A program made the position numbers and the translations under genes. From NCBI RefSeq assembly GCF_030384885.1, contig NZ_CP128613.1: a stretch of DNA of 64,000 bases; one strand, written 5' to 3'. The first letter of the stretch is position 1. Each line of letters starts with the position of its first letter. Source of the DNA: Escherichia coli (GTDB lineage: Bacteria; Pseudomonadota; Gammaproteobacteria; Enterobacterales; Enterobacteriaceae). Positions 59,072 to 60,579 of this stretch are shown piece after piece. The notes under the pieces are model-generated. The model did not search any database. It was not told where the DNA came from and worked only from the letters and a program-made list of their open reading frames with translations.

Positions 59072-59521
59072 AATTTTAGTTTTGAGACATCTCTATGAGT
59101 CTCAAGACAGTTAAAAAATAAAAATTATTTTTACCCGGTTATCTTGTAAAAAAGTGACTGGGTTTTTTGATTTCTGTGTTTTGTGCGCTTAATCGAGTCT
59201 CACGCTTCAGTGAGCAAATTGCCCCCCAACAGACATCACGATTCGCAAGGTCAAAAAATTCGTTCTGTGAAGTACCGTACAAAGGTATAGAGAAAAATGC
59301 CTTATGCGGGATGTTGCTGTCGCGTTTTTATCGGGAAACTAAACGTAATTGCCACTTTGTCTTCTGTAATCAGAAAAAGAAAACCTGGAATTTTAATAAA
59401 TATTATTTCTCTGGGACCGGTATTTTTATAATCAATATGACGAGTTGAATATTATATTTATTATAAGATTTATATGAAATTAAAGAAATCTGCCATAAAG
59501 ACAGATTTCTTTAAAATATAA

Positions 59522-60238
59522 TTAGAGATTTGCGACGTTATGATAAACTTTTTGAACATCGTCGTCATCTTCAAGGGCATCAACAAGCCCTTCAAAGATT
59601 TCTAAATCTTCTGGGGAAAGCTCAACTTCAGATTGAGCAATCATTTCTAATTCTGTTGTTGAGAACTCAGTGATTCCAGCTGCTTTTAGAGCCGCGATTC
59701 CTTTATGAAGGTCAGTAGGTTCAGTATAAATAACAATATTACCTTCTTCTTCAGTTACATCACGAACATCAACTTCAGCTTCAAGTAAAATTTCAAAAAT
59801 ATGGTCCGGGTCTGTACCTTTAAATACAATCACACCCGTATTGTCAAACATATAGCTGACAGAACCTGCCGCTCCGATATTGCCGCCTTTTTTATTGAAA
59901 ATTGTGCGAACGTTAGCAATCGTACGGTTAACATTTGAAGTCAAGGTTTCAGCGATAATCATTGAGCCATTAGGACCAAAGCCTTCATAACGGCCCTGCA
60001 CGAACGTTTCATCTCCGCCGCCTTTGGCTTTATCAATTGCTTTATCAATAACGTGCTTTGGAACTTGTGCCTGCTTCGCACGTTCAATAACGAATTTTAA
60101 AGATGTGTTTAATTCTGGATCGGGTTCACCTTGTTTGGCAGCAGCATAGATTTCTACACCGAATTTTGCATAAATTTTAGACGTTGCACCGTCTTTAGCC
60201 GTTTTTTTAGCAACAATATTGGCCCATTTACGTCCCAC
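59522..60238 (-). CDS. yeeN: YebC/PmpR-family transcriptional regulator YeeN, 238 aa
   Basis: YebC-family sequence ([27 protein letters not shown]…); notably AT-rich codon usage. Confidence 0.88.
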
Positions 60239-60579
60239 TGGAATGATCTCCTCGAAAATTTATTTACATTACTGGTAAATCGTTAACATGCGTTAATTCG
60301 GCATATTATATCATAACAGGAAAAATCTCGTCTATTAGAAATAAAAATATTCTAAATCCATAATCTTATATTTAATCTCATAAAAACTAATGTTGTTGGC
60401 GGATTTTTTTATAATTGTGTTTTGAAAGCATACTTGCTTTTAATATATGGAAATCATTAAGGCTATAATAAATCTCGTATCCGCCCCAGGAAGCAAACAG
60501 CCTGCTTTATTGCAGGCTATTTGCTGGATGACTTACTAAATCCTTCACATCTATTCCTGATAAAAAGGAACAGAACTTA

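Follow-up and report, generated by a model that had tools for sequence, protein, structure and literature searches.

A Lactococcus-like yeeN module between asnW and amn in Escherichia coli: a probable inter-phylum import with its own promoter and terminator

In Escherichia coli, the gene yeeN lies in an AT-rich segment between the tRNA gene asnW and the gene amn. We have analyzed this segment (positions 59072-60579) within a 64,000-nucleotide (nt) stretch of E. coli DNA (RefSeq assembly GCF_030384885.1, contig NZ_CP128613.1), hereafter the window. The original prediction, made from the letters of the window, had proposed a small, horizontally acquired segment, and this proposal is upheld by the base composition, by the absence of the segment between amn and asnW elsewhere, by a nucleotide identity of 88% to Lactococcus lactis and by the nesting of YeeN among Lactococcus proteins. 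Taken jointly, a foreign origin in Lactococcus and the anatomy of the insert described below are, in our judgment, very likely to be correct. The gene order at the locus, as annotated in E. coli 2013C-4282 and K-12, is cobT-ldtA-asnV-nac-cbl-asnU-yeeO-asnW-yeeN-amn-shiA, and the window differs from 2013C-4282 at just 2 positions across the 11 kb compared.

The core of the insert is a module of apparent lactococcal descent (59416..60347, minus strand), an unbroken stretch of ~0.93 kb that consists of a promoter, a 5' untranslated region with a Shine-Dalgarno sequence, yeeN, a terminator and what is left of the following lactococcal gene, a remnant of its 5' end. The module aligns by blastn to an L. 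lactis locus (L093:4888-5811) with 84.4% identity over 931 columns. Its edges are sharp, as identity per 30 columns drops to background beyond roughly 60340 and 59416. The yeeN coding sequence (CDS; 59522..60238, minus strand) encodes 238 amino acids from a GTG start and is identical to its L. lactis counterpart at 88.1% of nucleotides and 93.7% of amino acids. The homology is not confined to the CDS. Upstream, it continues for 109 nt and takes in the Shine-Dalgarno sequence, the extended -10 and the -35; downstream, it continues for ~99 nt, across the terminator and as far as the first codons of the following lactococcal gene.

Outside E. coli and Salmonella, the nearest named relatives of YeeN are from L. 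kimchii (about 89.5% amino acid identity), L. termiticola (85%) and Streptococcus (~79%), and the YeeN proteins of E. coli, Shigella and Salmonella share a 90%-identity protein cluster with a protein of L. lactis. In a neighbor-joining tree of 17 sequences, constructed with no bootstrap, enteric YeeN is sister to L. lactis and falls inside Lactococcus, with Streptococcus further out. Such nesting within a distant donor clade is one mark of a horizontally acquired islet. The yebC-type gene of L. lactis and L. kimchii resides in a conserved, native housekeeping neighborhood (yhbY, nadD, an HD-domain gene, rsfS, a methyltransferase gene, a HIGH-nucleotidyltransferase gene, yebC and, one gene on, the uracil-DNA glycosylase gene UDG). 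Because the enteric proteins nest in Lactococcus and the synteny is native there, the direction of transfer was most plausibly from Lactococcus to the enteric bacteria.

The regulatory signals of yeeN appear to have the same source as the gene. The predicted promoter (60305..60334, minus strand) has the form TAGACG-18-TATAAT with an extended -10 (TGaTATAAT) and scores 10/12 with the TG in a consensus scan. Its -35, TG and -10 elements are conserved across L. lactis, Salmonella and a further enteric copy in a locus that we refer to as L083, which suggests that the promoter is lactococcal and was imported together with the gene. The same hexamers have been reported as a constitutive RpoD promoter by genomic SELEX (systematic evolution of ligands by exponential enrichment), with an HNS mark in the amn-yeeN spacer (PMC3946193). 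Downstream of the gene, an intrinsic terminator (59480..59514, minus strand) comprises a 15-bp stem followed by a T-rich tail, with a folding energy of -18.7 kcal/mol (z = -7.8). It is kept in Salmonella, L083 and L. lactis in a four-way alignment and is likewise likely to have been inherited with the lactococcal fragment.

The base composition of the segment is clearly foreign to its surroundings. Its guanine plus cytosine (GC) content is 35.5%, compared to 48.3% for the whole window, and falls from 39.9% in yeeN to 32.2% in the spacer on the asnW side (59072-59521) and 30.5% in the spacer on the amn side (60239-60579). The neighboring genes yeeO (48.2%), amn (49.7%) and shiA (50.1%) bear out the proposal that yeeN and its flanks are markedly AT-rich relative to them. 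Both spacers also lie below every other intergenic region outside the O-antigen cluster (0.40-0.54). GC at third codon positions (GC3) in yeeN is 0.276 (27.6%), against a mean of 0.566 (standard deviation (sd) 0.075) for the 46 window genes that do not belong to the O-antigen cluster (z = -3.9). The O-antigen genes have equally low values (0.26-0.32). Two synonymous-codon models, one built on the native genes of the window and the other on the genes around the L. lactis homologue, were compared by their log-likelihood ratio. The ratio places yeeN on the Lactococcus side (-0.22 bits/codon), whereas the native genes average +0.42 (sd 0.21) with a minimum of +0.03. Thus, the comparison of GC and codon statistics with the average, which the original prediction had proposed as its own check, leaves yeeN atypical for its host in both base composition and codon usage, as expected for a horizontally acquired islet. 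A second, larger low-GC block in the window (22098-29965) is formed by six consecutive genes with GC3 of 0.26-0.32 and Lactococcus-like codon scores, and is the O-antigen cluster.

The limits of the insert can be drawn by comparison with relatives in which yeeN is absent. We scanned for Amn, using one genome per species, and fetched 80 loci from other species. A tblastn search with YeeN found no match in these 80 amn loci; the sole matches were the two E. coli reference loci. Together with the aligned junctions, this absence at the syntenic site in related taxa is another mark of an acquired islet. In E. albertii, Enterobacter cloacae, Pseudocitrobacter and Enterobacter ENT03, asnW lies 45-115 bp past the amn stop, and in all relatives without yeeN, including an Escherichia lineage with ~90% identity, the distance from amn to asnW is 45-320 bp. 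On the tRNA side, the left boundary is set by the 3' end of asnW (58996..59071, plus strand), a tRNA-Asn(GTT) identified by ARAGORN and scoring 72.6 bits with the Rfam tRNA model; E. coli homology to these relatives stops after AATTT (59072-59076), 5 nt beyond the tRNA. On the other side, the four named relatives share a hairpin (AAAAGCCCGC...GCGGGCTTTT) between amn and asnW. Its apparent equivalent in E. coli is an inverted repeat (I11) at 60496..60542 (minus strand; arms 60492-60505 and 60512-60525; folding energy -27.7 kcal/mol), which aligns locally to the amn-asnW spacer of each of these relatives with p <= 0.004 (1000 shuffles) and is probably a retained ancestral amn/asnW terminator. 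Since homology ends 5 nt past the tRNA and the ancestral hairpin persists at 60496-60542, the foreign insert appears to span about 59077-60495 (~1.42 kb). The segment had been proposed to begin at the 3' end of tRNA-Asn, which is right to within about 5 nt, and to extend to 60579. The latter limit is ~85 bp too far, as 60496-60579 corresponds to the ancestral 3' flank of amn (whose stop is at 60580, minus strand) and the terminator.

The segment is a core feature of E. coli and not strain-variable, being present at >=80% query coverage in 5385 of 5426 complete E. coli genomes. One fetched locus (L003), labeled E. coli SCPM-O-B-8794, is without yeeN. Near amn and yeeO its identity to the window is ~90%, and between amn and the ancestral terminator it contains a separate, unrelated insert of ~275 bp (8453-8769 of that locus). 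It was considered as a polymorphism within E. coli and rejected, as its spacer occurs in 0 of the 5426 complete genomes and its identity to the window is only ~90%. This locus probably represents another Escherichia lineage, of a different species.

The 3' end of asnW (59071/59072) also appears to be a live attachment site for islands. In E. coli MRY15-131 (L098, 28325-48300), an island of ~18 kb sits exactly at this junction, between asnW and yeeN. A tyrosine recombinase pseudogene adjoins asnW, the far end of the island is a 16-nt repeat of tRNA positions 61-76, and the spacer from 59072 on and yeeN lie beyond that far end. The island also carries HigA, RHS fragments and a trio of genes for a radical SAM protein, a DUF6375 protein and a 1352-amino-acid protein. 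The same strain is without nac, cbl and one tRNA-Asn gene, with a tRNA-Asn gene directly preceding yeeO, as would result from a deletion between copies of the asn tRNA gene.

The yeeN insert shares its position at a tRNA 3' end with such islands, and shares little else of their machinery. yeeN is the sole ORF in 59072-60579 with a family match, so that no integrase is encoded. A search for the tRNA-Asn 3' end as a 24-mer with <=3 mismatches recovered only the three tRNA genes and no distal repeat. The best 21-mer match to the tRNA end within the segment (12/21) is under the mean maximum for shuffled sequence (12.9). A 16/24 match to the tRNA end beside the ancestral hairpin was rejected (p = 0.22; 43% of other windows score equally). 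A 24-nt imperfect direct repeat bracketing the module (59160-59183 and 60401-60424, 79%) gave an uncorrected p of about 0.04 and was taken as chance.

Salmonella yeeN (STM4499, adjoining yjhP) belongs to the same ~1 kb module, with 90.5% nucleotide identity to E. coli over the CDS, at a different locus. There it borders strain-variable DNA with defence systems and an integrative and conjugative element (ICE). Depending on the strain, one side of the gene is occupied by BREX, Dnd, EcoRII with Dcm, McrBC with methylases, type I restriction-modification, a ScoMcrA-like HNH protein, CcdAB, HipA or an ICE (the hyper-variable side is seen in L086, L087, L088, L089-L092, L096 and L097); leuX itself was not seen in the fetched loci. 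The Salmonella and E. coli genes are alike in that each lies beyond a tRNA-linked variable region, and they differ in the tRNA and the flanks. A third, more divergent enteric copy, L083, comes from a record labeled Salmonella and has yet another context. In hundreds of Salmonella and some E. coli assemblies, contigs begin inside the 5' end of yeeN (L085-L087; P0015, P0021), leaving partial proteins of varied length; our guess is a drop-out of coverage in the very AT-rich upstream DNA, although an insertion sequence or repeat may be responsible instead.

The E. coli, Salmonella and L083 copies have in common a GTG start, which is ATG in lactococci, and 13 further derived sites, polarized where L. 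lactis and L. kimchii agree. The downstream breakpoint of lactococcal homology is the same in all three, and Salmonella and L083 have both breakpoints in common, their lactococcal DNA reaching ~120 nt further upstream than that of E. coli. The shared start codon, derived sites and breakpoint favor one entry into the Enterobacteriaceae followed by spread, and the parallel between the MRY15-131 island and the Salmonella arrangement suggests that yeeN arrived as island cargo. A more far-reaching reading, which we hold to be about evenly balanced between right and wrong, is that a single ~1.05 kb L. lactis-type fragment (the 3' tail of the upstream gene, the promoter, yebC, the terminator and a 5' stub of the next gene) entered once, was passed from one enteric lineage to another at the distal edges of tRNA-linked islands (at leuX in Salmonella and at asnW in E. 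coli) and was fixed in E. coli. The lactococcal fragment would have entered the Enterobacteriaceae once, the module would have travelled as cargo close to the distal ends of tRNA-linked islands, and it would have been left at asnW in the E. coli stem lineage once the rest of the vehicle had decayed; we give this sequence of single entry, island cargo and vehicle decay roughly an even chance.

The strongest competing account is that the fragment passed directly from lactococci to E. coli and, independently, to Salmonella, for example through uptake of naked DNA, in dairy or in the gut, and illegitimate recombination, with no island vehicle and no spread from one enteric bacterium to another. 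The rough equidistance of E. coli, Salmonella and L. lactis (88-90.5% at the nucleotide level) is in its favor, as are the different loci, the longer upstream lactococcal DNA of Salmonella and the lack of an integrase or repeat at the insert. We nevertheless consider it unlikely: the GTG start and the 13 other derived sites recur in all three enteric copies, the breakpoints coincide as described above, both well-characterized sites flank tRNA-linked island hot spots on their distal side, and ~490 bp of the E. coli insert is neither lactococcal nor ancestral.

This remaining DNA forms two outer pieces. The piece on the asnW side (59077..59415; 339 bp, AT-rich) supplies the present asnW trailer and has no similarity to L. 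lactis, Salmonella, L083, L003, plasmids, phages or any fetched locus. The piece on the amn side (60348..60495; 148 bp, very AT-rich) falls in a published amn/yeeN "promoter island". It has no significant similarity outside E. coli among the fetched sequences, and its alignment to the lactococcal upstream region is background-like (0.47-0.57). A plasmid search with the outer pieces returned only chromosomes mislabeled as plasmids and distant yebC genes, and a phage search only one Salmonella chromosome contig and distant Firmicute yebC genes.

An unannotated functional gene in the spacers, for a small RNA or protein, could in principle account for the retention of the segment in place of yeeN regulation. 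The first ~110 nt past asnW form two very stable hairpins (59079-59108, and a terminator-like one at 59133-59163 followed by a U6 run; 59072-59185 folds with -33.5 kcal/mol, z = -5.7) and have changed less from lineage to lineage than the remainder of the spacer. In addition, the RefSeq numbering of locus tags has a gap of one between asnW and yeeN, in 2013C-4282 and K-12 alike, which hints at a withdrawn annotation in the 450-bp spacer. The prediction that the spacers hold no convincing ORFs is sustained: none of the four spacer ORFs (93, 47, 44 and 30 amino acids) has a Pfam match at E<=1, and the asnW-yeeN spacer, home of the three longest, carries indels relative to K-12, one of a single base. 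At a permissive Rfam threshold, the tRNA alone passes, with STnc370, manA-II and Thr_leader far under their gathering scores. The proposed search of 59072-59521 for promoter and small RNA signals therefore yielded stable hairpins and, apart from the tRNA, no Rfam family. Between two E. coli lineages the spacers are ~8% divergent, compared to 1.5% for yeeN, and the hairpins are explained as the tRNA trailer and a terminator. Thus, we regard a hidden gene as very improbable. The possibility that the terminator on the asnW side is a homologue of the ancestral terminator was rejected, as the similarity is weak and inconsistent (p = 0.01-0.03 against two relatives, not significant against three).

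Published data agree with the suggestion that the flanks are candidates for H-NS binding, as far as the amn/yeeN spacer is concerned (PMC3661553, Table 1; PMC3946193). This spacer is one of the 78 "promoter islands" of E. coli K-12 (Panyukov & Ozoline 2013, PMC3661553), is listed there as occupied by H-NS according to the data of Kahramanoglou and Oshima (Table 1, code K) and has been tied to foreign genes by five methods, including those of Lawrence & Ochman 1998, Nakamura 2004 and Price 2008 (PMC3661553). In our consensus scan, 11 promoter-like sites were found, against 5.7 (sd 2.7) expected in 2 kb. The H-NS consensus motif TCGATAAATT, with <=2 mismatches, occurs 5 times in the segment, compared to ~2.2 expected by length, which is not convincing.

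YeeN contains the TACO1_YebC_N domain (PF20772, 1.7e-25) and the second and third YebC domains (PF01709, 1.7e-51). Among the NCBIfam models, it scores 352 bits with NF009044 (cutoff 196) and 240.2 bits with NF001030, which is under the cutoff of 243; by our own reading, these models correspond to the YebC_II and YebC_I subtypes, respectively. This domain content and the YebC_II-type score indicate that YeeN is a YebC_II-type TACO1/YebC translation factor, and b1983 is labeled YebC_II in PMC12234827. The protein is identical to that of K-12 (WP_000532923.1). In a reconstituted system, E. coli YeeN partially rescues pentaproline stalling, more weakly than YebC, and its M2 and Y84A mutants are inactive (PMC12234827). 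YeeN also boosts Pro-Pro-Pro as well as several substrates that are non-canonical, and YeeN and YebC are competitors for the ribosomal A site (PMC13284719). In our reading, the imported promoter would drive yeeN, given that the E. coli sigma-70 holoenzyme is reported to recognize it in vitro, and the AT-rich upstream spacer would be H-NS-bound, as the literature indicates. Following the published activities, the protein would relieve stalling at polyproline and other poor substrates, competing with native YebC for the A site.

yeeN is intact and under strong purifying selection, and is maintained rather than decaying. The ratio of nonsynonymous to synonymous divergence (dN/dS) relative to L. 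lactis is about 0.04, and the two E. coli lineages whose spacers were compared above encode identical YeeN proteins with 11 synonymous differences (dN 0, dS 0.07). Synonymous divergence of yeeN is 0.65 between E. coli and L. lactis and 0.48 between E. coli and Salmonella. At the neighboring amn, dS from E. coli is 0.49 for the ~90% identical Escherichia lineage and 1.9 for E. albertii, and is saturated for Citrobacter. Changes on the E. coli lineage of yeeN comprise 13 from AT to GC and 2 from GC to AT, an excess that is a signature of amelioration. Thus, these divergences suggest that the transfer is young on the scale of enteric genera and older than the diversification of E. coli. The description of the segment as "old" holds in a relative sense: the transfer predates E. 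coli diversification, but a yeeN dS of 0.65 is close to the 0.49 of amn relative to the sister Escherichia lineage and far below the 1.9 of amn relative to E. albertii.

The view that yeeN is an ancient, vertically inherited yebC paralogue, made AT-rich by local mutation bias or low-expression selection, would fit its near universality in E. coli and is hardly tenable, given 88% nucleotide identity to L. lactis against just 39% amino acid identity to E. coli YebC (PDB 1KON), co-inherited lactococcal non-coding DNA, absence from the syntenic locus in all other fetched taxa with a different locus in Salmonella, and a dS to L. lactis far under the inter-genus enteric dS at amn.

Several observations weigh against the import as we have reconstructed it. 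The insert retains neither an integrase or transposase nor a significant direct repeat of the tRNA 3' end, so that any mode of insertion is conjectural. For roughly a third of it (59077-59415 and 60348-60495), no match was found in the sequences searched. The derived sites common to the enteric copies could stem instead from a lactococcal donor outside our sample. Our comparison within the genus covered two other Escherichia lineages, and none of the loci was identified as E. fergusonii, E. marmotae, E. ruysiae or E. whittamii. The evidence for H-NS binding and for use of the promoter comes from the literature, and our own motif count is uninformative. Finally, deletion of yeeN in Salmonella has no effect on growth, even without elongation factor P (EF-P) (PMC12234827).

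Other genomic islands of E. coli integrate at tRNA-Asn genes, among them the high-pathogenicity island (HPI) at asnT and the pks island at asnW. The yeeN insert resembles tRNA-Asn islands in its junction at the 3' end of asnW and in placing foreign DNA between the tRNA and its old downstream flank. It differs in having no integrase or significant repeat, in its size of 1.4 kb and in being essentially fixed instead of strain-variable. Thus, the insert lacks two defining traits of an integrase-type tRNA island, and it has the traits of an acquired islet and of the YebC_II subtype for which we looked.

YeeN has the same two-domain architecture, and belongs to the same NCBIfam subfamily, as the YebC_II/YebC2 proteins, which include S. 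pyogenes YebC, B. subtilis YeeI (as cited in PMC12234827) and mitochondrial TACO1. Unlike these, E. coli YeeN is a xenologue beside a native YebC_I, is weaker than YebC and competes with it (PMC12234827, PMC13284719), and in Salmonella it is not redundant with EF-P (PMC12234827).

That yeeN is foreign, and that a promoter island bound by H-NS lies upstream of it, has already been published. The promoter-island study (PMC3661553) covers the same locus and names no donor there; on the basis of a different locus, it makes the case that surplus promoters arise after transfer, whereas here the working promoter itself appears to be a lactococcal import. We found no paper that links yeeN to Lactococcus or names a co-transferred promoter, and the YebC papers do not discuss transfer. 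Our additions are modest: the identity of the donor, the transfer of promoter and terminator along with the gene, the exact limits of the insert and the Salmonella copy at a second locus.

Two features of the window are distinct from the insert. The amn gene (minus strand) has an in-frame stop at codon 56 of 484 (TCA to TAA, at 61867-61869); the otherwise near-identical strain 2013C-4282 has a sense codon at this position and an intact amn. The second difference between the two sequences over 11 kb is at position 54738, in the ldtA-asnV spacer.

The genome annotation is little changed by these results. Their interest lies with the YebC-family factors, which are actively studied as rescuers of polyproline stalling, and among which E. 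coli and Salmonella YeeN have been treated as native paralogues. YeeN instead appears to be a close copy of an L. lactis protein (94% at the amino acid and 88% at the nucleotide level), promoter and terminator included. If so, the "YebC_II paralogue" in translation studies of E. coli and Salmonella would be a Firmicute factor of recent import that acts on a foreign ribosome, which could explain its weaker activity, its non-redundancy with EF-P and its competition with native YebC. The locus would then represent a rare and cleanly bounded inter-phylum transfer, in which the donor's own promoter is used in the recipient.

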